Assembly (NCBI GenBank): GCA_021817825.1
Contig: JAKAFS010000005.1
Location: forward strand, 2,679 to 66,678
Direction: 5' to 3'
DNA from: Deltaproteobacteria bacterium
Lineage (GTDB): Bacteria > Desulfobacterota > Syntrophia > Syntrophales > UBA5619
Length of the DNA stretch: 64,000 nt
Shown: positions 19,743 to 31,605 of the stretch, piece after piece
How positions within the stretch are numbered: position 1 is the first letter of the stretch
Layout of the letters: each line of letters starts with the position of its first letter
The notes under the pieces: generated by a model
What the model saw: the letters and a program-made list of their open reading frames with translations, nothing else
The model's database searches: none
Told to the model about the DNA's origin: nothing
Made by a program: the position numbers and the translations under genes

Positions 19743-19847
19743 GACGCGCGCACCTATTTATCCTTTGACGCCCCGCCGATCCCCCGTTATAATCGCAAAA
19801 AAGCATCAAGATCCTTTCGAAATTTCTGTAAACCCAGGGAGGTGGTC

Positions 19848-20945
19848 ATGAACGATCGGTTGAAGATCGCGATCAACACCGGCGGCGGCGATGCCCCCGG
19901 ACTCAACGCCGTCATCTATGCCGTGACGATGGCGGCCGAGCGTCGCGGCTGGGAAGTCTATGGGATCCACACCGGCTACAAGGGGTTGCTGGACACCGAT
20001 CTGATCACCCGTCTCACCCCCGAGAAAGTCTGCGGGATCGTCTCCCTCGGCGGCACGATTCTCGGCACGACGAACAAGGGCGATCCCTTCAACATGCCCG
20101 TCAAGAACGCCGTGGGCGATGTGGAATGCCGCGATGTCTCGGGGAAGATCCTCTCCAATTTCAAACGGCTGGGACTCGATGTCCTGATCGCCGTCGGCGG
20201 TGACGGCTCTCTGCGGCTGGCCCACCGTTTCGCCCAATTGGGGATGCCGATCATCGGCGTCCCCAAGACGATCGACAACGATCTGGCGAGCACATTGGTC
20301 ACCTTCGGCTTCGATACGGCGGTGACCACCTCGACCGAAGCGATCGATAAGCTCCACTCCACGGCCAGCGCCCATCAGCGGGTGATGGTCGTCGAGGTGA
20401 TGGGCCGCTACGCCGGCTGGATCGCGCTCAACAGCGGCATCTCCGGGTCGGCCGATGTGATCCTGGTCCCCGAGATCCCCTTCACCATGGAAAGCGTTTG
20501 CGAGAAGATCATGGACAACGAGCTGCACGGGAAGGACTACGGCATCGTCGTTGTCGCCGAAGGGGCCAAGGCCCTGGGCGGCCAGATGATCACCAAGGGG
20601 GCCGGGGAAGAGGGGCGCCAGGAGGTGCTTTTGGGCGGCATCGGCGAATGGGTGGCCAAGGAGATCCATAAACGGACGGGTAAAGATACCCGCTCTTTGG
20701 TCCTGGGACACCTACAGCGCGGCGGTTCGCCTACGACCTTCGACCGGTTGATCGCGTTGCGTTTCGGCGCCGCGGCAGTCCGCTTCATCGCCGAGGGGCA
20801 GCGCAACGTGATGGTGGCCAATCAGCCGCCGACCATGGTGCCCGTTCCCCTGGCCGAGGCCGCGGAAAAGATGAAATCGGTGCCCCTCGATTCCGATTCG
20901 ATCCTCACGGCCCGCGATCTGGGGATCAGCTTCGGCGACGAGTGA
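19848..20945 (+). CDS. pfkA: 6-phosphofructokinase (PfkA family; phosphoryl donor ATP or PPi unresolved)
   Basis: GGGDAPGLNA, GGDGS and PKTIDNDL motifs. GGDG is ATP-like and the Lys in PKTIDND is PPi-like, so the donor is ambiguous. Confidence 0.9.
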   Translation: MNDRLKIAINTGGGDAPGLNAVIYAVTMAAERRGWEVYGIHTGYKGLLDTDLITRLTPEKVCGIVSLGGTILGTTNKGDPFNMPVKNAVGDVECRDVSGKILSNFKRLGLDVLIAVGGDGSLRLAHRFAQLGMPIIGVPKTIDNDLASTLVTFGFDTAVTTSTEAIDKLHSTASAHQRVMVVEVMGRYAGWIALNSGISGSADVILVPEIPFTMESVCEKIMDNELHGKDYGIVVVAEGAKALGGQMITKGAGEEGRQEVLLGGIGEWVAKEIHKRTGKDTRSLVLGHLQRGGSPTTFDRLIALRFGAAAVRFIAEGQRNVMVANQPPTMVPVPLAEAAEKMKSVPLDSDSILTARDLGISFGDE

Positions 20946-20972
20946 AGCGGCTGTTCCGACAGGGAGGATAGA

Positions 20973-21737
20973 ATGAGCGGCAGCACGTACGGTCTGGAAG
21001 ACAAGGTCGTTATCGTGACGGGCGGAAGCCGGGGGATCGGCCGGGAGTTGGCCCGCAGTTTCCTCGGGCAGGGGGCGCGGGTCGTCATCTGCGGCCGCAA
21101 AAAGGAGAACCTGGATGCGGCCCTGGCGGATCTGGGCGGCGGCGAGCGGCTCCTGGCCGTAACCGCCCATGTGGCCCGCGAAACCGATGTGGAAGCCCTC
21201 TTCGCGGCGGTCGTTCAGCGATTCGGCGGCCTCGATGTCCTGATCAACAACGTGGGGATGAACCTGCCGACGGTCTCCGTCGCCGATACGGATCTGGCCG
21301 TCTGGAACAAGATCATCGAAGGCAACCTGACTAGCGCCTTTCTCTGCGCCCGCCAGGCCGCCCGGATCATGAAGGAGAAGAAACGGGGTAAGATCGTCAG
21401 CCTCTCGTCGATCGCCGGTACACGGGCCGCCCCCGGCATGGGGATCTACGGCGTCGCCAAGGCGGGTCTCGAAATGCTCACGAAAGTCCTGGCCGCGGAA
21501 CTTGCCGCCTGCCACATCCAGGTCAACGCCGTCGCCCCGGGGATGGTGCGGACCGACTTCAGTAAGCCCTTCTGGTCGGAGCCTTCGATCTGCGAACAGA
21601 TCGTCAAGATGATTCCCGAAGGACGGATCGCCGAAGCGGCCGATCTGATCCCCCTTGTCCTGATGCTGGCCTCCAGTCAGGCGGACTACATCACCGGGCA
21701 GACGATCGCCGTAGACGGCGGGGCCACGGCCATATGA
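20973..21737 (+). CDS. SDR-family oxidoreductase (FabG-like)
   Basis: TGGSRGIG cofactor motif and YGVAKAG catalytic motif. Confidence 0.85.
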   Translation: MSGSTYGLEDKVVIVTGGSRGIGRELARSFLGQGARVVICGRKKENLDAALADLGGGERLLAVTAHVARETDVEALFAAVVQRFGGLDVLINNVGMNLPTVSVADTDLAVWNKIIEGNLTSAFLCARQAARIMKEKKRGKIVSLSSIAGTRAAPGMGIYGVAKAGLEMLTKVLAAELAACHIQVNAVAPGMVRTDFSKPFWSEPSICEQIVKMIPEGRIAEAADLIPLVLMLASSQADYITGQTIAVDGGATAI

Positions 21738-22501
21738 GCCTGACCGCCGGGATCGATATCGGCTCGATCACCGCCAAGGCCGCCGTCATGAGCGGCAAGG
21801 AGATCCTGGGGACGCGGGTGAGCTTCACGGGCTACCATTCCGAGACGGCGGGCCGCCGCGTTTTCGAGGAACTTCTCGGGGAACTGGGGCTCTCCCGAGA
21901 CAGGATCGGTCGGATCGTGGCCACGGGCTACGGCCGCAAGAATGTGAGCTTTGCCGACAAGGCGGTGACGGAAATCATGTGCCACGCCGCCGGGGCGCGC
22001 TGTCTCGAACCTGCCGTCCGATCGCTCATCGATATCGGCGGGCAGGACAGCAAGGCCGTCCTCATGGATGAAGCCGGACGGGTCGTGAATTTCACGATGA
22101 ACGACAAGTGTGCCGCCGGGACCGGCCGTTTTCTCGAGGTGATGGCGCGCGCCCTGGAGGCGGACCTGGACGGATTCGGCGCCCTTTCGCTCAAGGCGGA
22201 TCGGCCGGCCCAGATCAGCAGCCTCTGCACGGTCTTTGCCGAGTCGGAGGTGATTTCGCTCATCGCCCGGGGGGAGATGCGGGAAAACATTGCGGCGGGG
22301 ATTCACGAGGCGATCGCCTCCCGGATCTCCGCCATGGCCGGCCGGATCGGCCTGGTTGCCCCGGTCATGATGACGGGAGGGGTCGCCCGGAACAACGGTG
22401 TCGTTCGGGCCCTGGAAAAGGCGCTCGGGATGCCGATCATCGTCTCGCCCCAGGCCCAGCTCACGGGCGCCATCGGCGCGGCGTGCCTTGCTCAGATTTA
22501 A
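21734..22501 (+). CDS. Acyl-CoA dehydratase/benzoyl-CoA reductase-type activase (BcrA/BadF/HgdC ATPase)
   Basis: GIDIGSITAKAAV, DIGGQDSK and NDKCAAGTGRFLE motifs. The start overlaps the SDR stop (ATGA). Confidence 0.85.
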   Translation: MSLTAGIDIGSITAKAAVMSGKEILGTRVSFTGYHSETAGRRVFEELLGELGLSRDRIGRIVATGYGRKNVSFADKAVTEIMCHAAGARCLEPAVRSLIDIGGQDSKAVLMDEAGRVVNFTMNDKCAAGTGRFLEVMARALEADLDGFGALSLKADRPAQISSLCTVFAESEVISLIARGEMRENIAAGIHEAIASRISAMAGRIGLVAPVMMTGGVARNNGVVRALEKALGMPIIVSPQAQLTGAIGAACLAQI

Positions 22502-23568: not shown

Positions 23569-24027
23569 CTATTCCGTACCCGCGTCGACGGGACGACGAT
23601 TCATGGCCAGCTGTTTGCGGCCTTCCTTGAAGAGGACCTCCATGCGGTCGGCCGTAACCTGTTCGACGAATCCTCGTCCGAAATGGGCGTGGGCGATGAT
23701 GTCCCCTTTTTCGTAAGACTCCGAAAGGCGGTAATCCCAGATGGCGGCATCGGGCGGCTGTTCGGCGCTGCGCAATTCCCACTGCCGCGCATCCGCCGGC
23801 CGGACCGGATTCGGTTTGGCCGCCGATCCTAATCTTCCGCCCGGACGGCGTTCCGCCGGGACCTCCCTTTTCTTTGCCGGTTTCGGTCCCCGGTAGCGGT
23901 GCTCGGCCCCGCAGGTCTTGCATTTTACGCTATGGACAGCCCCTGCCACCTCGTAGAGGACAATGTGCGCCAGCGTGAGCTGACAACGCAGGCAAAAGGC
24001 GTCGATGTTCTTTCCAACCAATGACAC
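23569..24027 (-). CDS. Hypothetical zinc-ribbon protein
   Basis: CLRC...CKTCG Cys4 pattern, a basic linker and a conserved-looking C-terminal domain. I recognise no family. Confidence 0.5.
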   Translation of the reverse strand: MSLVGKNIDAFCLRCQLTLAHIVLYEVAGAVHSVKCKTCGAEHRYRGPKPAKKREVPAERRPGGRLGSAAKPNPVRPADARQWELRSAEQPPDAAIWDYRLSESYEKGDIIAHAHFGRGFVEQVTADRMEVLFKEGRKQLAMNRRPVDAGTE

Positions 24028-24182: not shown

Positions 24183-26939
24183 TTATTGTCTCGCGCCCAC
24201 GAATCCTCCGGTGGCATGCTGTCCCCCCTGGCCGGCCTTCCAGACACCGCCAATGGCCTGGGCCGTGGTTCCATACAGGGAGCCGGCGGCGGCCTTTTCC
24301 GTCGCTGTGACACCTCCCACCGTCCAGGTTCCTGTCCCGGAGGTGATGGTGAAGTCGCTGCCCGTGATGGAACCCGAGGCACCGGAGACGGAAACGTATT
24401 TGCTGCTGTCTCCTCCGACGTCGGAGGCGTTAAGGTTGAAGTTGGTGACCGACGTGGAAGCGAAGTTCACTGAGGCGCTGAAGGTCCCCCGCAGAGAGGA
24501 CGAACTGCCCCCCCCGGCAAAGAGAGTTCCCCAGGAATCGCCCTGGTAGGTGCCCGTCATGCCGACGTTCGGGGTCGTCATGTCGGTTGTCTTGTCGCCC
24601 CAGACGTAGGCCCCCCGGTTCTTGAAGTCGTAATTCGTTCCGATGACGTCCATCGCGACGGTCTGGGTCCAGGTTCCCCACTCCATGTAGGCGTTTGAGG
24701 CGATCTTCTCGAACGAAATAGATTTGTTAGGCGATCCGCTGCCGGGGTATACAGCGAGAATGGCGATTTGCTTCGGTGAGGCGGCCCCGTTGATCTGGAG
24801 AAGATTCGTTCCGTTGTAGGCCTCGGCGGTGGAGGTGAAATCCTGCCAGGCGGTGGACATGTAGGTCCCCACGTAGAGGTTGCTGGCGCTGTTTTCGAGC
24901 ATTCCCGTAATGAAGCCTTGTTGGGCCGTCGGCGCGGCAACCCCGGTGAAGCTGTTGGAACTGATCCCCTGGTAGGTGCCCACGGCGCCCGTGCCGGTGG
25001 CGCTGTCGTACATCGCCCAGGGGCCACCGATGTAGTTGCCGTTTGTCCCGTAGAGAGAGCCCACAGCGCTTTTCCGGTCGGGAAAGACATCGCCGCTGCC
25101 GCCGTTCAATTTCCAAACGCCCGTTGTGGTATCGATCTTGAAATGGGCGTCGCTGCCGATCGTTCCCGAGGCGCCGGAGATGAGGGCCGAGGCGCCGCTA
25201 CCGGAGACGGTCACATAGAAGTTGTTCACCGCTCCGGTCGTAAGGTTGACGGTGCTGCTGAAGCTCCCCGTCATGTTCTTGCCGCCTGCGGCTGTCCAGT
25301 AGGTGCCATAGGCCCCGCCGCTGAAGCTCGCCGACCCTGAGAACTTCGAAATATCGGGCGTACTGTAGCCGAGGACATAGTAGGCCCGGTTATCCACCCC
25401 GTAGCTGGTGCTATCGGTCGTGAATGGGGCAATCGTTGCCCAGCCCCACTCCATGAAAAAATTGGTGCCCAGTATCCCGTGGGTGATGGGGGTGCTCAGT
25501 TCCCCGGGCGACTTGGTCCCGGAGCTGAAATCAACCCACTTCAGAGTGGGATCACCGAACTTCCCGCCGCCGTAAATCCGCATGAAGTCCTTTGCAGGGT
25601 CATTCATCCCCCTGGCCCAAGAACTATCATCCATATTCTGCCGGTTCAGGCTCATGAAGACCTCTTCGAGGGCCCCGGTCGAGGCGTTTGACAGGAGGCC
25701 CGTGAAGTAACCGGCGCTCTTCCCTGATGCGTTTGGCTGCTGCAATCCGGGGTCCGTTACGCTGTCGGTCGGCTTGGTCGTCTGTTCGACCTGGGTGGTG
25801 TTCTGGTTCTGGATGACGTTTGAGGTATCGATCACCGGAAGGGTTGGCCCCGCGGGCTGCCCGCCGCCCGCGGTATTGTCGGGCGCATTGCCCCCGGTCT
25901 GTCCCTGGCTGCTTCCCGCTTCGCCGCCACCTGAACCGTTGCCCGTACTGCCGGAACTCCCACCGGAGCCGCTGGAGCCTCCACTTGATCCGCCGGCATT
26001 TCCGCCGTTGCCCGCCGGGGGTGGGACATTCGTTATGGACTGGAACCGCTGGGAGATTTGGGGGGGAGTCGGCATGAGAGCGCCCATCCCCTGGGGGGTG
26101 GTCGTGAGGCTCTGGCCCGCCCCGACCAGGGTCGTTGCTCCCGTCGTGTTCGAAGTGACCGCCACGGTGCCGTCGAACCCGTGGACCGTGGTGTTAATTA
26201 CCGCTGTTCCCGATCCTCCTCTAGCTCCAGCCCCAGCCCCTGCCCCAGCTCCTCCACCTCCCCCCAACCCTCCCGGAATATTCGCCTGGGCCAGCCACAG
26301 ATAGCGTCGCCAGTCGGGGGAGTTATCGGCGATAAGAAGTGGAAGGGTGTCCAGAGCCGCCGTGCCGTTGGTCTCGCCTTTTTCCTCGCTGATCTCCATG
26401 CCGAATTTCGTTCCCCGGACGCCGGCCGTCGCCGTCGGGCCCTCGACGGTCATCTCCAGGCTCTTGTGGTTGAGCAGGCGGATGGCGTAGAACATCGCCT
26501 TGCCCTTGACGAGGGAGAGGACGGACTTTTTCTCGGCGGTGCCGCGGTTTCCCGCCACCTCCTTGACTGCCAGGCGGCTGTCGTCCCCGATGGTGACGAT
26601 GTCGTCGTTGAGGAGCTTGAGGCGGCACTTGGCATCCTTGAGCGTGAAGACCACGTCCTGCTCGTAGAGCTTGTCCCCGTTTGCGGCAAAGTAGGCCTGG
26701 CTCAGATCGCCCCGGGCCACGATCACATGGGCCAGGACGGTCTGAATCACGCCGGCCTCCTGCGTTGCGGCTGGGATGAAGTAGTCTTTCACCGAGACAT
26801 CCTTCAGCTCCTTGGGGAGCTGGCTTGCCGCTACGGCGCGGCCCCGGTTTTCGGCGGCGAGGACGTTGCGGACCTGCCATCCGCAGAGGAGCAGCAGGAA
26901 CAGGATGGCAATCAGGGAAAGGGGTATGCGACGGTTCAT
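24183..26939 (-). CDS. Secreted FecR-domain protein with Gly/Ser-rich linkers and two TbpB-like (handle + beta-barrel) lobes; candidate Slam/T11SS cargo
   Basis: Signal peptide (MNRRIPLSLIAILFLLLLCGW...LAAE). A FecR-like region follows (VIVARGDLSQAYFAANGDKLYEQDVVF...VEGPTATAGVRGTKFG). Poly-Gly/Ala and Gly/Ser tracts come next. Two homologous C-terminal modules end in ...AAGSLYGTTAQAIGGVWK...ATGGFVGARQ, which resembles TbpB/HpuA barrel domains. A GGGAGG RBS lies 17 nt after the upstream gene. Confidence 0.8.
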   Translation of the reverse strand: MNRRIPLSLIAILFLLLLCGWQVRNVLAAENRGRAVAASQLPKELKDVSVKDYFIPAATQEAGVIQTVLAHVIVARGDLSQAYFAANGDKLYEQDVVFTLKDAKCRLKLLNDDIVTIGDDSRLAVKEVAGNRGTAEKKSVLSLVKGKAMFYAIRLLNHKSLEMTVEGPTATAGVRGTKFGMEISEEKGETNGTAALDTLPLLIADNSPDWRRYLWLAQANIPGGLGGGGGAGAGAGAGARGGSGTAVINTTVHGFDGTVAVTSNTTGATTLVGAGQSLTTTPQGMGALMPTPPQISQRFQSITNVPPPAGNGGNAGGSSGGSSGSGGSSGSTGNGSGGGEAGSSQGQTGGNAPDNTAGGGQPAGPTLPVIDTSNVIQNQNTTQVEQTTKPTDSVTDPGLQQPNASGKSAGYFTGLLSNASTGALEEVFMSLNRQNMDDSSWARGMNDPAKDFMRIYGGGKFGDPTLKWVDFSSGTKSPGELSTPITHGILGTNFFMEWGWATIAPFTTDSTSYGVDNRAYYVLGYSTPDISKFSGSASFSGGAYGTYWTAAGGKNMTGSFSSTVNLTTGAVNNFYVTVSGSGASALISGASGTIGSDAHFKIDTTTGVWKLNGGSGDVFPDRKSAVGSLYGTNGNYIGGPWAMYDSATGTGAVGTYQGISSNSFTGVAAPTAQQGFITGMLENSASNLYVGTYMSTAWQDFTSTAEAYNGTNLLQINGAASPKQIAILAVYPGSGSPNKSISFEKIASNAYMEWGTWTQTVAMDVIGTNYDFKNRGAYVWGDKTTDMTTPNVGMTGTYQGDSWGTLFAGGGSSSSLRGTFSASVNFASTSVTNFNLNASDVGGDSSKYVSVSGASGSITGSDFTITSGTGTWTVGGVTATEKAAAGSLYGTTAQAIGGVWKAGQGGQHATGGFVGARQ

Positions 26940-26956
26940 ATAACCTCCCGGAAAAA

Positions 26957-28408
26957 TCAGAAATAGAAACCCATGCTGAGGGTGTAGGTCTGCTTCCTGA
27001 ACGTGAAGAGTTCAAGATTCGACAGGTTTTCGATGTAGTTGTAGGAGAGCGAGGCGAACAGGTGGTTCAGCAACTCCTGGCTCACGACGGCGGAGAAGCT
27101 GTGCCGCCGATCCACCCGCTCCTCGTTGTAGAGAATGGGCGCCGCCTTGTAGTCCCTCATTCCGAATTGGTAGCGGAAGAAAAGATCGGTCTTGGTGGAA
27201 AAACGGGTGTAGTAGGAAATGGCTCCGTAGGGGGCGGTGTAGGAGAAACGGCGGGCCTCCGCCGCGACGTATTCCTTCCCGAGGCTAAGGGAGACGATAT
27301 GCCGGCGATCCAGAAAATAAAAGTTCGGCGTAAGTTCGTAGCGGTTCGTGACGTTGTTCTGATCCTGGTTGGTCAGCTCCATGAACCGCTCTTTGCTGTT
27401 AGAGTAAAGGGCTTTGAGGCTGAAGGAGGAGGTGAAGTAATGTTCCCAGCTCGGCCGGAAGTGGTAGATGGTCGAAAGAGGATCGCTGCCGAGTTCCTGT
27501 TTGGAGATCCCCAGGGGGAGCTTCACGATATCGTTCGGCCCCACCCACCAGAGGCCGGTTGAAAAATCTCCGAGGAGATAATTGTATTTGCCGTTCCGGA
27601 AATAGAACTGGTTGTATACATCGGCCGTCGTGTTCCAGAGGAAGCCTTTCTTTTCTCCGAAGTCGTAGAGGACGTTTCCCGAGAAGTTCTCGATCGAGGC
27701 CCAGTCGCTGATTTTCGTGGCGCTGTCGTCCAGGGTCAGGGTTCCCCCCGTTACGCTGAGGACCTTTTGGTCCGGGCCGCTGGAGACATTGCTGTCCCAC
27801 TGGAGCCCCTGGGAGAAACGGACATTCCAGAAAAGGGTCTTCGTGCTCTCCTCGATGGCGGCCAGGAGGCGGTCGATATTCTGAACCACCGCTTCGGGCG
27901 GCCGGGCCTGCTTGACGAGTTCCGCCTCGCGGCGGGCCTCCTCGTACTGCTTCAACTGGAAATGGGCGGCGGCCAATTCGAGGCGGACCCGATGCAGTTG
28001 GGGATCGATGGTCAGCATCCGTTGGAACTTTTCGATCGCCAGCTTGGTTTCGCCGACGTTCATGGCGCTTGTCCCTAGCCACCACATGATATCCATGGTT
28101 TCCACATCGGCGGCGATCAGGTTGAAGATGGGCAGGGCCTGGGCGAATTTCCCGTCGTAATAGAGCGTCAGGGCCTCGGTGAGCTTGTCGTCGAGGCCGG
28201 CGATCTTGTCCGCCGGCATCTGGCGGAGCTTATCGACCGCTTCCTGATGGGCGGTTCGATAGTCCGGCTCCCCGCTCGGCTGGGCGGATTCGAGGGCGGG
28301 TGGCGTGGTGGCCGAGAGCTGGCCATGGGCCGGCGTGGTGCTGAAGACCAGGACGGTAAAGGGGATCAGGCACAGGCCGGACAGAGAAGAAACGTATTTT
28401 TTGCTCAT
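26957..28408 (-). CDS. Outer-membrane protein with N-terminal TPR region and C-terminal beta-barrel, Slam/DUF560-like (type 11 secretion translocon candidate)
   Basis: 483 aa with a signal peptide. TPR-like helices are present (YYDGKFAQALPIFNLI..., KLAIEKFQRMLTIDPQLHRVRLELAAAHFQLKQYEEARREAE). A region of about 300 aa with alternating beta-strand pattern follows and ends in the aromatic terminus LSMGFYF. The gene is adjacent to a TbpB-like cargo gene. Confidence 0.65.
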   Translation of the reverse strand: MSKKYVSSLSGLCLIPFTVLVFSTTPAHGQLSATTPPALESAQPSGEPDYRTAHQEAVDKLRQMPADKIAGLDDKLTEALTLYYDGKFAQALPIFNLIAADVETMDIMWWLGTSAMNVGETKLAIEKFQRMLTIDPQLHRVRLELAAAHFQLKQYEEARREAELVKQARPPEAVVQNIDRLLAAIEESTKTLFWNVRFSQGLQWDSNVSSGPDQKVLSVTGGTLTLDDSATKISDWASIENFSGNVLYDFGEKKGFLWNTTADVYNQFYFRNGKYNYLLGDFSTGLWWVGPNDIVKLPLGISKQELGSDPLSTIYHFRPSWEHYFTSSFSLKALYSNSKERFMELTNQDQNNVTNRYELTPNFYFLDRRHIVSLSLGKEYVAAEARRFSYTAPYGAISYYTRFSTKTDLFFRYQFGMRDYKAAPILYNEERVDRRHSFSAVVSQELLNHLFASLSYNYIENLSNLELFTFRKQTYTLSMGFYF

Positions 28409-28526: not shown

Positions 28527-28642
28527 CGATCTACAGACGATAAGGTTCACATTCGTATTATAAATACTAGAAAGGAACGCACTTTTTGTCAAGGTGAGAA
28601 TCTTGACGGTATTTGATAATCGCAGGACATCATGCTTATGCG

Positions 28643-28938: not shown

Positions 28939-29565
28939 ATGGAAACACTACACAAATGGCGGCTTTCCATTCGGCTGGTTTTAATCGTCGCGATCTTGTC
29001 GGCGCTTTTGGTAAGCGCCGCTTTTGGCGCGCAAGGGAATACCTCGGCTATCGCGACTCCCGGGAAACAGGCCGCCGTGCCGGCCAAGGCGTTTCCCTCG
29101 CTGGAGCTTCCGATCCCGCAGAGCGAGCAGGAAAAGGGTTATCTGGGTCTTTCCGGATCGGGAACGTTCCGGATCGGGCAAATCAAGGCCCCGGTGCTGC
29201 TCATCGAGGTCTACAGCTTCTATTGTCCCCATTGTCAGGTGAGCGCCGCCCGGGTAAACGATCTCTATCGGAAGATCCAAGAGAATCCTGAACTCAGGGA
29301 TAAGATCAAGATGATCGGAATCGCGGTCGGCAACAGTTCCTTTGAGGTCGATTCCTACCGGGAGAGATATGAGGTGCCCTTTCCCCTCTTTTCCGACTTG
29401 AACATGGAAATGACCGAAAAACTCGGCGTCAGGGGGACGCCTACCTTTATCGGCGTCAGAACCGACCGGGGGGAGGGGCAGCCGTCGTTCTATTTCGGCG
29501 AAGGCGGTTTCGAGGACGCCCAGCAGTTTTTGGAAAAGATGATCCAAATGTCCGGGTTGAAATAG
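28939..29565 (+). CDS. Secreted thioredoxin-fold protein (CPHC active site)
   Basis: Signal peptide, and a YSFYCPHCQ motif in a thioredoxin/DsbA-like fold. AAGGAG RBS. Confidence 0.75.
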   Translation: METLHKWRLSIRLVLIVAILSALLVSAAFGAQGNTSAIATPGKQAAVPAKAFPSLELPIPQSEQEKGYLGLSGSGTFRIGQIKAPVLLIEVYSFYCPHCQVSAARVNDLYRKIQENPELRDKIKMIGIAVGNSSFEVDSYRERYEVPFPLFSDLNMEMTEKLGVRGTPTFIGVRTDRGEGQPSFYFGEGGFEDAQQFLEKMIQMSGLK

Positions 29566-29575
29566 GAGGAAGAAG

Positions 29576-30199
29576 ATGAACGGACAAACAGGCAAGTTGA
29601 AAAGTTTGCTGTTGATCGGCCTGTTCTGGCTCGCGGGAGGCCTTTCGGAGGCCTGTGCCCAAGCTGTCGGCTTCACGGAATTCATTTATCCCATGGGACT
29701 TCTCAAGCCTACGGACAGCGTTCCCGCATTGAAGGTCGGAGAGGCAGCCCCCGATTTCAGCCTTCCGGCGGTCGCCGGGGGAAAAGTCTCCCTTAGCCAA
29801 TTCAGAGGGCAAAAGAATGTCGTCATTTCCTTTGTCCCCGCGGCATGGACGCCCGTGTGTTCCGGCCAGTGGCCCGGCTATAACATCTCCAAAGACCTTT
29901 TCGAAAAGCATGACGCGATTCTTCTGGGCATTACGGTGGACAACGTCCCCACCCTCTATGCCTGGACGAAACAGATGGTGAATCAGAACGAAAAACTATG
30001 GTTCCCCGTTCTGTCCGATTTTTATCCCCACGGCGCCGTGGCTTCCCGGTATGGCGTGCTCCGTTCGGACGGGACGTCGGAGCGGGCGCTGTTCGTGATC
30101 GACAAAAAGGGGATCATCACCTATATCGATGTCCATGACATCAACCAGCGGCCGCTGCTCGACGAACTTGCCAAAGCCCTTGCGCGTTTGAACCGGTGA
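29576..30199 (+). CDS. Periplasmic peroxiredoxin (AhpC/TSA/Prx family)
   Basis: Signal peptide (LLLIGLFWLAGGLSEACA) plus an FVPAAWTPVC peroxidatic Cys motif. Confidence 0.85.
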   Translation: MNGQTGKLKSLLLIGLFWLAGGLSEACAQAVGFTEFIYPMGLLKPTDSVPALKVGEAAPDFSLPAVAGGKVSLSQFRGQKNVVISFVPAAWTPVCSGQWPGYNISKDLFEKHDAILLGITVDNVPTLYAWTKQMVNQNEKLWFPVLSDFYPHGAVASRYGVLRSDGTSERALFVIDKKGIITYIDVHDINQRPLLDELAKALARLNR

Positions 30200-30333
30200 A
30201 GGGTTGGTCTGGACTGGGGGCCTCAACGCCCGGTCCTGAAATGCGCTTTTGCCGGGGGATTTACCTGTACGCGTTCGGCCTGAGATGCTGCCTGCCGAAG
30301 CGTGTATGAAACACACTGGGAGACATATCGCTT

Positions 30334-31605
30334 ATGATCGAGTATATCCGTCTTCTCCTCGAAGAAGCTTTCCGTTTGGGTTCTTTTCTGCCTTTCTTCC
30401 TCATGTTCGGCGGGGGAGTGCTGGCGTCCCTGACGCCTTGCACCTATCCGGTCCTTCCCTTGACGGTTGGTTACATCGGCAATCAGGCGGCGGGCGATCG
30501 GTTGAGGGCTTTTCTGCTGAGTCTTTCCATGGTGACCGGTCTGGCCGCGGTTTATGCGCTTCTGGGTTGCGCCGTGGCGGCGCTGGGGGGAACCTTCGGG
30601 GCGCTCATGGGCAACGGCTGGGTGCTTTTTGCGATTTCCGCCTATTTCCTCGTCATGGGGCTCTATCTCCTGGATGTGTTTCAGTTCCCCATTCCCCGGT
30701 TTTTATACGCCCTCCAGGCGAAACCGGGAAACCGCAGGGGACTTCTGGGGGCCTTCGTCGTCGGAGGGGTCAGCGGCCTGATTGTCGGACCCTGTACGGG
30801 CCCCATCCTGGCCGTTGCCTTAGGGGCGATTGCCCTGACCCTGAAAAACGTGCAGGGCGCCGAGTACGCCCTACAGATCTTCAAGGGCGGGGTGCTCCTC
30901 TTTCTCTTCGGCTTTGGCCAGGGGGCGCTGATCCTCCTGGCGGGGACCTTTACCGGCTTCCTCTCCAGGCTTCCCAAATCGGGCGGATGGATGGTGGCGG
31001 TCAAAAAAGGTTCCGCCCTGCTGATCATCGCCATGGCAAGTTTCATGTTTGTCTTCGTGGGGCAAAACACCGATTTCCCGAGCCTGACCCGGTTTCTGGC
31101 CGGTACGCCGGCCACGACGGAGATTTCGCGGCTCGACAAAATAAATGAGGAGACAGCGAAACCCCGCGCCATCGAACAGCGCTCGACCGGTCCGGCCCCC
31201 GACTTCACCCTGCCTTCGCTGGGAGGCATCGACGTCAGTCTGAACCGCTTGAAAGGAAAAAAAGGGGTCGTTCTGGTATTCTTCGCGACCTGGTGCGTCA
31301 ACTGCATGAAAGAGGTCCCGGAGATCAAACACTTCGCGGATGAGGTGCGCAAAGACAACATCGTCGTCCTCGGCATCAATTTCAAGCAGTCCGATGAGAT
31401 CGTGATGCGCTTCAAGCAGTCCCATAACATCAATTACGGATTGGTCCTGGATAAAGACGGCAAGGTCACCACCGATCTGTACGGCATCACGGGGATCCCT
31501 CATGTGGTCGGCATCGATGGCAACGGGGAGATCGTCTACAGAGGATCGAACCTGCCGCACAACAAGACCGAATTCGTCGATCAGTTGAAAAGGGGGCTGC
31601 AATAG
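30334..31605 (+). CDS. CcdA/DsbD-like transmembrane domain fused to a C-terminal TlpA-like thioredoxin domain
   Basis: The N-terminal polytopic part carries LTPCTYP and GPCTGP motifs. The C-terminal part carries FFATWCVNC in a thioredoxin fold. Confidence 0.85.
   Translation: MIEYIRLLLEEAFRLGSFLPFFLMFGGGVLASLTPCTYPVLPLTVGYIGNQAAGDRLRAFLLSLSMVTGLAAVYALLGCAVAALGGTFGALMGNGWVLFAISAYFLVMGLYLLDVFQFPIPRFLYALQAKPGNRRGLLGAFVVGGVSGLIVGPCTGPILAVALGAIALTLKNVQGAEYALQIFKGGVLLFLFGFGQGALILLAGTFTGFLSRLPKSGGWMVAVKKGSALLIIAMASFMFVFVGQNTDFPSLTRFLAGTPATTEISRLDKINEETAKPRAIEQRSTGPAPDFTLPSLGGIDVSLNRLKGKKGVVLVFFATWCVNCMKEVPEIKHFADEVRKDNIVVLGINFKQSDEIVMRFKQSHNINYGLVLDKDGKVTTDLYGITGIPHVVGIDGNGEIVYRGSNLPHNKTEFVDQLKRGLQ

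Follow-up and report, generated by a model that had tools for sequence, protein, structure and literature searches.

A FecR-domain protein with TbpB-like lobes beside a Slam homolog: a likely type 11 secretion pair in a Syntrophales genome

The 64,000 nucleotides (nt) analyzed here, referred to as the window, come from contig JAKAFS010000005.1 of a Deltaproteobacteria bacterium (assembly GCA_021817825.1; GTDB order Syntrophales) and contain two minus-strand genes that encode a homolog of the outer-membrane protein Slam and, directly downstream, a putative cargo with a FecR-like domain and two TbpB-like lobes. The Slam/DUF560 homolog, named for the outer-membrane protein of the type 11 secretion system (T11SS), has 483 amino acids (aa) and occupies 26957..28408, as assigned from Pfam, its homologs, and AlphaFold2; the cargo gene, assigned from Pfam, AlphaFold2, Foldseek, and a lobe profile, encodes 918 aa at 24183..26939 (stop codons are included, and the parts of both genes described below lie on the minus strand). 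Between them is a 17-nt intergenic spacer (26940..26956) with a Shine-Dalgarno sequence, GGGAGG, 6 nt 5' of the cargo ATG, which confirms the spacing and shared strand given in an initial annotation that had proposed a type 11 secretion pair at this locus. The 483-aa protein had a match of 100% identity among deposited proteins, in a metagenome-assembled genome (MAG) labeled 'Deltaproteobacteria bacterium', and the nearest relatives were found in Syntrophales and Syntrophaceae MAGs.

The 483-aa protein is, judging from sequence and predicted fold, a Slam/DUF560 homolog. In Pfam it matched TPR_Slam (PF24575) with 36.7 bits versus a gathering score of 35.2, and SlipAM/DUF560 (PF04575) with 33.3 bits versus a gathering score of 22, the latter over aa 194-483 and model positions 1-288 of 288; TPR_16, TPR_2, and TPR_19 also matched in its TPR domain. 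The AlphaFold2 model, based on a 62-sequence alignment, had a mean predicted local distance difference test (pLDDT) score of 86.8 and placed a signal peptide, a disordered stretch, eight TPR-type helices, and 14 long strands in that order. The helices, together with the Pfam TPR matches, delimit a putative periplasmic TPR domain (aa 51-189; 27842..28258), and the 14 long strands assigned by DSSP (aa 192-482; pLDDT 90-98) make up a predicted outer-membrane barrel (aa 192-483; 26960..27835). The protein terminates in ...LSMGFYF, with an aromatic GFYF beta-signal that is typical of outer-membrane proteins. The best superpositions of the model in a Foldseek comparison with the PDB were 14-stranded OmpG (template modeling score, TM, of 0.65-0.77) and CymA (TM 0.52-0.57), whereas TM to the 16-strand BcsC was only 0.29-0.35. 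The N-terminal helices, the C-terminal beta region, the Slam/DUF560 identity, and the 14-strand rather than another barrel class were all anticipated by the initial annotation and were recovered here. At least 199 homologs of the protein were identified, some of them named by NCBI as 'DUF560 domain-containing protein' or 'surface lipoprotein assembly modifier'.

The cargo begins with a Sec (type I) signal peptide (aa 1-28; 26856..26939), read from the sequence, with predicted cleavage after VLA and no lipobox. Across 78 homologs we observed ordinary Sec signal peptides and AxA-type sites followed by the mature N-terminus ENRG..AP..LPKELK, and the Cys of 'LLLLCGW' was neither conserved nor in a lipobox. 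On these sequence features the cargo is non-lipidated across the family, as the earlier suspicion of a poor lipobox had suggested, and we therefore class it with the soluble T11SS cargo and not with strict surface lipoproteins. The first ~30 mature residues (ENRG..A..LPKELK.VSVKDYF, aa 29-59; 26763..26855) were kept across the 78 homologs, with a mean identity of 60% within the two-lobed subfamily, yet were predicted to be disordered, with low pLDDT; conserved in this way, they look like a linear partner-binding motif.

A FecR-like beta domain follows (aa 60-303; 26031..26762) and is succeeded by a long disordered linker and then the lobes; a FecR-like domain had been proposed at this end of the protein from the sequence. 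FecR (PF04773) was matched over aa 96-189 with 29.3 bits versus a cut-off of 24; the region also resembled, weakly, the Leptospira FecR-domain proteins Lsa33 and LipL45 in NCBIfam and matched the PupR C-terminal signalling domain by Foldseek (6ovk_R, E 4e-5, TM 0.53). In the AlphaFold2 model the domain is split by a disordered Gly/Ala-rich insertion (aa 187-245; 26205-26381) into beta parts of about aa 60-186 and 247-303. Neither a cytoplasmic anti-sigma domain nor a transmembrane helix was present in the cargo, which has a cleavable signal peptide only. The linker (aa 304-404; 25728..26030) is rich in Gly, Ser, Thr, Pro, and Asn and was modeled at pLDDT 26-45 with no secondary structure. As a separate observation, a tandem-repeat scan had one outcome, a hexamer tract within the Gly/Ala insertion, (AGCCCC)4.5 on the plus strand at 26223-26253, that is, (GGGGCT)4.5 in the coding sense, which could permit length variation.

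The C-terminal half of the cargo contains an internal duplication, in which aa ~410-657 and ~675-918 share 31% identity over 260 aa (E 2e-28); the homologous modules proposed earlier are therefore real, and the motif string on which that proposal was based was found in both. In the AlphaFold2 model, which used 24 sequences for the cargo, the N-lobe (aa 405-662; 24954..25727; pLDDT 80-96) comprises a handle at ~405-530 and an 8-stranded barrel at ~531-662, and the C-lobe (aa 670-918; 24186..24932) a handle at ~670-790 and an 8-stranded barrel at ~791-918. Each lobe had about seven handle strands and then eight barrel strands by DSSP. The N-lobe is supported by the duplication and by TbpB/LbpB matches, and the C-lobe by AlphaFold2, Foldseek, and the lobe profile; the C-lobe is likely the Slam targeting domain.

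Structural comparison of the whole cargo with the PDB returned full-length TbpB or LbpB as its top 31 matches, at E of ~1e-12 and with ~600 aligned columns. Whole-chain TM to TbpB/LbpB was low (0.24-0.28) because the orientation of the lobes differs. Subsequent matches were the TbpB C-lobe, the NHBA C-domain (TM 0.73-0.76), HphA, haemophilin, fHbp, and the LbpB N-lobe, so that the assignment of TbpB-type handle-barrel lobes made in the initial annotation holds; NHBA, HphA, haemophilin, and fHbp we take to be members of the TbpB-like Slam/T11SS cargo group. TbpB, LbpB, Hpl, and fHbp are given as verified T11SS cargo (PMC12282271). When all PDB sequences were searched with a profile built from 52 lobes, only TbpB (C-lobe, best E 1.4e-8), NHBA, and LbpB fell below E 0.01, and the alignment of the profile with the TbpB C-lobe paired the G.vYGp.A.e.GG and C-terminal G.F.G motifs. 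Among 50 Slam-adjacent relatives of the cargo, 12 matched TbpB_B_D as individual sequences (best 1.5e-10) and three matched FHBP_C. Because the Foldseek matches, the lobe profile, and the Pfam matches of relatives agree, the cargo lobes are true homologs of the TbpB-type handle-barrel lobe.

The two genes are tightly linked in both directions, in line with the co-localization of homologs that was expected for such a pair. The Slam alignment was used to search a set of genomes in which each GTDB species was represented once, and this gave 79 loci, all of them from Thermodesulfobacteriota-type MAGs or isolates, including Syntrophales, Desulfobacterales, Desulfatiglandales, Desulfonema, Desulfosudis, and Desulfobacterium N47. 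Homologs occur in Syntrophus aciditrophicus and Desulfosudis oleivorans. Downstream sequence of 1.5 kb or more was available at 59 loci; at 56 of them the next gene downstream, in the same orientation, encoded lobes, usually after a gap of 10-40 nt, and 48 of these 56 genes had a FecR N-domain. In the reverse direction, metagenome loci were picked by two FecR-domain peptide patterns from the cargo alignment; 47 had enough upstream DNA, and 39 of them carried a Slam gene upstream on the same strand (37 directly, two slightly further off). When lobes were present in the cargo, a Slam gene was found at 25 of 29 loci. Clustering of all neighboring open reading frames (ORFs) revealed no other broadly conserved neighbor gene.

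Cargo proteins differed in lobe number, with one lobe (about 590-620 aa) being commonest, two lobes (about 850-920 aa) occurring mostly in Syntrophales, and three (1183 aa) or about six (1959 aa) also represented. The 1959-aa relative (L017:9369-15248) has one FecR domain and then about six tandem TbpB-like lobes, and an exhaustive HMMER search added further large relatives of 1421, 1663, and 1973 aa. The N-domains were surveyed in Slam-anchored loci, as a search with the lobe profile was dominated by low-complexity words and gave only five fragments. Where FecR was absent, four loci had TPR plus CsgG-like as the N-domain and two had CHAP, alone or joined to DUF4214; the rest were left unassigned. 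CHAP, a peptidoglycan amidase/peptidase domain, replaces FecR in the Slam-adjacent cargo at L025:9409-11178 and L080:783-2462, the latter also with DUF4214; such cargo could be a cell-wall hydrolase that is either exported or kept in the periplasm by an outer-membrane tether.

In a tree of the Slam proteins, N-domain swaps and changes in lobe number were scattered among FecR-type pairs, and two pairs with different N-domains were found in single MAGs (L012 with L013, and L060 with L061). Within the two-lobed subfamily, identity to the query was highest in the N-terminal motif and FecR domain (60-66%; FecR, 63-66%) and lowest in the lobes (40-53%). The HMMER search covered 1.84 billion representatives and matched 813 clusters (50% identity) at E <= 1e-3, of which 267 reached E <= 1e-10 and at least 150 reached E <= 1e-30. 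The cargo family is thus sizeable, modular, and, as far as sampled, confined to Thermodesulfobacteriota. Interchangeable N-domains joined to one to six lobes are the pattern expected if the lobe is a secretion tag or scaffold and the N-domain its payload.

Third genes were linked to the pair in particular clades. In the seven Syntrophales loci nearest to the window, an OmpH/Skp gene lay directly after the cargo gene on the same strand (skp at L004:15188-15733; also L006, L008, L017, L083, L084, and L091), and Skp is required for Slam1-dependent TbpB translocation (PMC9090332). In ~20 Desulfobacterales loci, a CHASE2 adenylate/guanylate cyclase gene was convergent with the cargo gene and immediately after it (750 aa at L046:9419-11683, the Desulfobacterium N47 locus; also L041, L042, L045, L048, L049, L058, L066, L072, L097, L098, L100, L101, L122, and L130). 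These cyclases were 60-83% identical across loci, and the cargo at one of them (L066) was of the TPR-CsgG type in place of the FecR type. A secreted LysM-FecR protein is encoded beside a CHASE2 histidine kinase in Burkholderia (PMC5192318). The window was searched for a CHASE2 cyclase, skp, and a second Slam/cargo copy, and none of these was found.

We consider it likely that the two genes form a two-gene type 11 secretion (Slam) operon, encoding a translocon and its substrate. The initial annotation had proposed such a pair in a Deltaproteobacteria-like genome, and family membership, folds, and linkage support that proposal, with translocation itself inferred. Both proteins would be exported by Sec, as their signal peptides suggest. 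As its Pfam matches and predicted structure suggest, the 483-aa protein would form a 14-stranded DUF560 barrel in the outer membrane and extend its TPR domain into the periplasm; insertion would presumably be carried out by the beta-barrel assembly machinery (BAM), as in the Neisseria, Xenorhabdus, and Haemophilus systems. The cargo would probably be kept unfolded by a periplasmic holdase such as Skp, a step suggested by the Neisseria mechanism and by the skp gene directly after the cargo gene in the closest relatives. Homology and the very tight two-way gene linkage suggest that the C-terminal TbpB-type barrel lobe may be recognized by the adjacent Slam and the cargo then translocated to the cell exterior. 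There, both handle-barrel lobes could serve as ligand-binding modules, and their ligand would not be a host protein because the organisms that carry them are free-living anaerobes. The N-terminal FecR-like domain may be a protein-protein docking, anchoring, or effector module; docking or anchoring is suggested by its position, where TbpB-type lipoproteins carry a lipid anchor and anchor peptide.

Several observations count against this secretion model. The lowest Foldseek E-values of the Slam model belonged to BcsC and PelB, exopolysaccharide porins that likewise consist of TPRs plus a barrel, and the PDB set searched was one without a Slam structure, so that this comparison informs strand number and barrel class only. 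The SlipAM score was modest (33 bits), and the protein would therefore belong to a divergent Slam clade. TbpB_B_D (PF01298) stayed below its cut-off in the window cargo (16.6 versus 26 bits, aa 809-915); the Pfam check of the TbpB assignment thus failed for this protein and succeeded for its family, through the lobe profile and the relatives. All T11SS verified by experiment fall into the animal-associated cluster 1 and stem from animal-associated Proteobacteria (PMC12282271). Surface exposure or secretion of the family members is a prediction, and their FecR, CHAP, CsgG-like, and TPR N-domains are normally periplasmic and fit complete export poorly.

The last of these points leads to a different topology, in which Slam exports the lobes only, the ~100-aa Gly/Ser linker stays in the channel, and the FecR, CHAP, or TPR-CsgG-like N-domain remains in the periplasm. 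Such a protein would be a lipid-free outer-membrane tether or an outside-in signalling device, and its output in Desulfobacterales might reach the neighboring CHASE2 cyclase. The periplasm is the classical location of all three N-domain types, and the identity of 60-66% in the N-terminal motif and FecR domain versus 40-53% in the lobes is as would be seen with a fixed internal partner and variable external lobes. The convergent CHASE2 cyclase gene right after the cargo gene in ~20 loci also suits this arrangement, as does the documented Burkholderia case in which a secreted FecR-domain protein and a CHASE2 sensor are paired (PMC5192318). In the proposed Slam model a C-terminal cargo motif is recognized (PMC9090332), and if threading starts from the C-terminus, as we infer, a folded N-domain could stall passage. 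However, the T11SS cargo characterized to date is all exported in full; the CHASE2 link is also seen with FecR-less cargo (L066) and is absent from the window, and Leptospira FecR-domain proteins are annotated as surface adhesins. We regard the threaded topology as improbable and keep it as a live minority hypothesis in view of the periplasmic N-domain types and of the N-terminal part, where conservation is highest.

Two further readings were weighed. Without translocation, the cargo could be periplasmic and dock on the TPR domain of the Slam-like protein, whose barrel would then be a porin or have a structural role, with the gene linkage reflecting complex formation. Linkage alone fits a binding partner as well as a substrate, and the N-domains are of periplasmic types; yet the lobes match, among solved structures, only TbpB-like/T11SS cargo proteins, they vary from one to six and diverge faster than the rest, as is typical of exposed domains, and a skp gene is linked to the pair, all of which makes this reading very unlikely. 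We give almost no credence to FecR-type anti-sigma cell-surface signalling or to a BcsC/PelB/PgaA-type exopolysaccharide porin, with a neighbor gene unrelated to pore function, despite the FecR Pfam match of the cargo and the low BcsC and PelB E-values of the outer-membrane protein. FecR/PupR anti-sigma regulators share the FecR (PF04773) beta domain with the cargo, and the PupR C-terminal signalling domain is a structural match, but the cargo is not a member of a FecR/PupR regulatory system because it has a cleavable signal peptide and no anti-sigma domain, transmembrane segment, or FecI or FecA partner. Genes for an extracytoplasmic function (ECF) sigma factor, a TonB-dependent receptor or transducer, or a polysaccharide synthase were not found within ~10 kb of the pair. 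The FecIR anti-sigma reading was rejected on architecture and gene context, and the porin reading on the 14 instead of 16 strands, the SlipAM and TPR_Slam scores above cut-off, the short TPR domain, and the lack of synthase genes nearby.

If the pair is a translocon with its substrate, its closest counterparts are Slam1/TbpB and Slam2/HpuA of Neisseria, which likewise place a TPR plus DUF560 14-strand barrel protein beside a cargo built of a handle plus an 8-strand barrel. The bilobed body of the cargo superposes on TbpB/LbpB, and the Skp connection is common to the Neisseria systems. Unlike the Neisseria cargo, however, the protein described here has no lipobox or lipid anchor and carries a FecR-like domain in the N-terminal position; its hosts are free-living anaerobes (Syntrophales, Desulfobacterales), there is no TonB-dependent receptor partner nearby, and its ligand could not be a host iron protein. 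Haemophilin (Hpl/HrpC) and HphA resemble it in that they depend on Sec, are not lipidated, and carry a functional part ahead of a C-terminal 8-strand barrel, and they too are encoded beside their secretor. Both have a single lobe with a haem-binding handle, whereas the cargo here has two lobes (one to six in the family), a FecR-like domain, and a ~100-aa disordered linker, with no indication of haem binding. Soluble Sec-dependent T11SS cargo is an accepted class (PMC12282271).

The multi-TbpB_B_D proteins of 'Sphingomonas' and 'Psychrobacter' (PMC12282271) are also similar, with a long disordered region ahead of two to three handle-barrel repeats, and an adjacent T11SS is predicted to export them. 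They differ in having Pro/Thr-repeat N-termini without a folded N-domain (FecR, CHAP, or CsgG-like), are mostly lipoproteins, and belong to another phylum-level group and another Slam cluster. Leptospira LipL45/Lsa33 and the Burkholderia LysM-FecR protein (PMC5192318) share with the cargo a signal peptide followed by FecR without anti-sigma parts, and linkage to a CHASE2 sensor is common to the Burkholderia LysM-FecR operon and a subclade of the cargo loci. Unlike the cargo, the Leptospira and Burkholderia proteins have no TbpB-like lobes, and no Slam gene adjoins theirs.

Slam homologs were reported in all proteobacterial classes by Hooda et al. 2017, whose supplementary list includes Syntrophus aciditrophicus, Desulfobacter, an uncultured Desulfobacterium, and Geobacter. 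The neighbor screen in that study targeted lipobox proteins, and because earlier screens sought lipoproteins beside Slam genes, deltaproteobacterial Slams such as these were scored as cargo-less. Grossman et al. 2025 (PMC12282271) described about ten cargo architectures for cluster 1 T11SS, none of them with FecR, and DUF1194 for cluster 3; in that study FecR appeared only among regulatory neighborhood domains, and Deltaproteobacteria were not discussed. We found no report that combined FecR with DUF560, FecR with 'TbpB-like', or a relevant T11SS with Desulfo* in the literature searched, which covered few subscription-journal papers, so that absence there is not proof. The earlier supposition that the combination was undescribed stands to this extent for the cargo; the Slam homologs of Deltaproteobacteria, including that of Syntrophus, had already been catalogued in 2017.

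What is new is a non-lipidated cargo architecture of FecR-like N-domain, disordered linker, and TbpB-like lobes; the type of secretion system is itself already known. If exported as proposed, these proteins would define a conserved non-lipidated class of T11SS cargo among free-living syntrophs and sulfate reducers and would extend T11SS biology to free-living anaerobes and the TbpB fold to non-host ligands. With their swappable N-domains and variable lobe number, they are natural chimeras for questions about the T11SS targeting signal. The periplasmic character of the N-domains and the CHASE2 cyclase gene found with the pair in one clade also raise the question of whether Slam always exports its whole substrate. 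The threaded topology, if true, would provide lipid-free anchoring of periplasmic domains to the outer membrane, and its FecR forms would couple surface binding to envelope partners, for example, the CHASE2 cyclase in Desulfobacterales.

The G+C content of the gene pair (~0.60) is the same as that of the remaining window. A promoter-like candidate, TTGACA-17 nt-TAGTAT (28564..28592, minus strand; 10 of 12 matches), lies ~155 nt upstream of the Slam start codon and is regarded as a candidate only, since such sites in the region were not above shuffled expectation. The promoter/terminator scan gave no convincing terminator 3' of the cargo gene. A 152-aa ORF (23569-24027, minus strand), 155 nt 3' of the cargo gene, has two Cys-x2-Cys pairs, is zinc-ribbon-like, and has a basic middle region; it is apparently cytoplasmic and had no Pfam match. 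It was called by gene callers on other contigs, and the gene calls of 483, 918, and 152 aa recurred together on two further public contigs. As a third operon member or Skp it was rejected, being zinc-ribbon-like, 155 nt away, and not kept at other loci.

Genes around the pair encode a phosphofructokinase, a short-chain dehydrogenase/reductase (SDR), a BcrAD_BadFG activator, a metallo-beta-lactamase-fold protein, and a divergent AhpC/thioredoxin/DsbD cluster. This thiol-redox cluster (28939-31605, plus strand), divergent from the Slam gene, consists of two AhpC/TSA-type thioredoxin-fold proteins and a DsbD_TM-thioredoxin fusion; it was rejected as a component of the system because it is common to near-identical contigs only and not to other Slam loci. 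At 21734-22501 and 19842-21737 (plus strand), the BcrAD_BadFG-type ATPase, an activator of CoA-ester reductases/dehydratases, adjoins the SDR and the phosphofructokinase, a neighborhood that fits a Syntrophus-like anaerobic metabolism.

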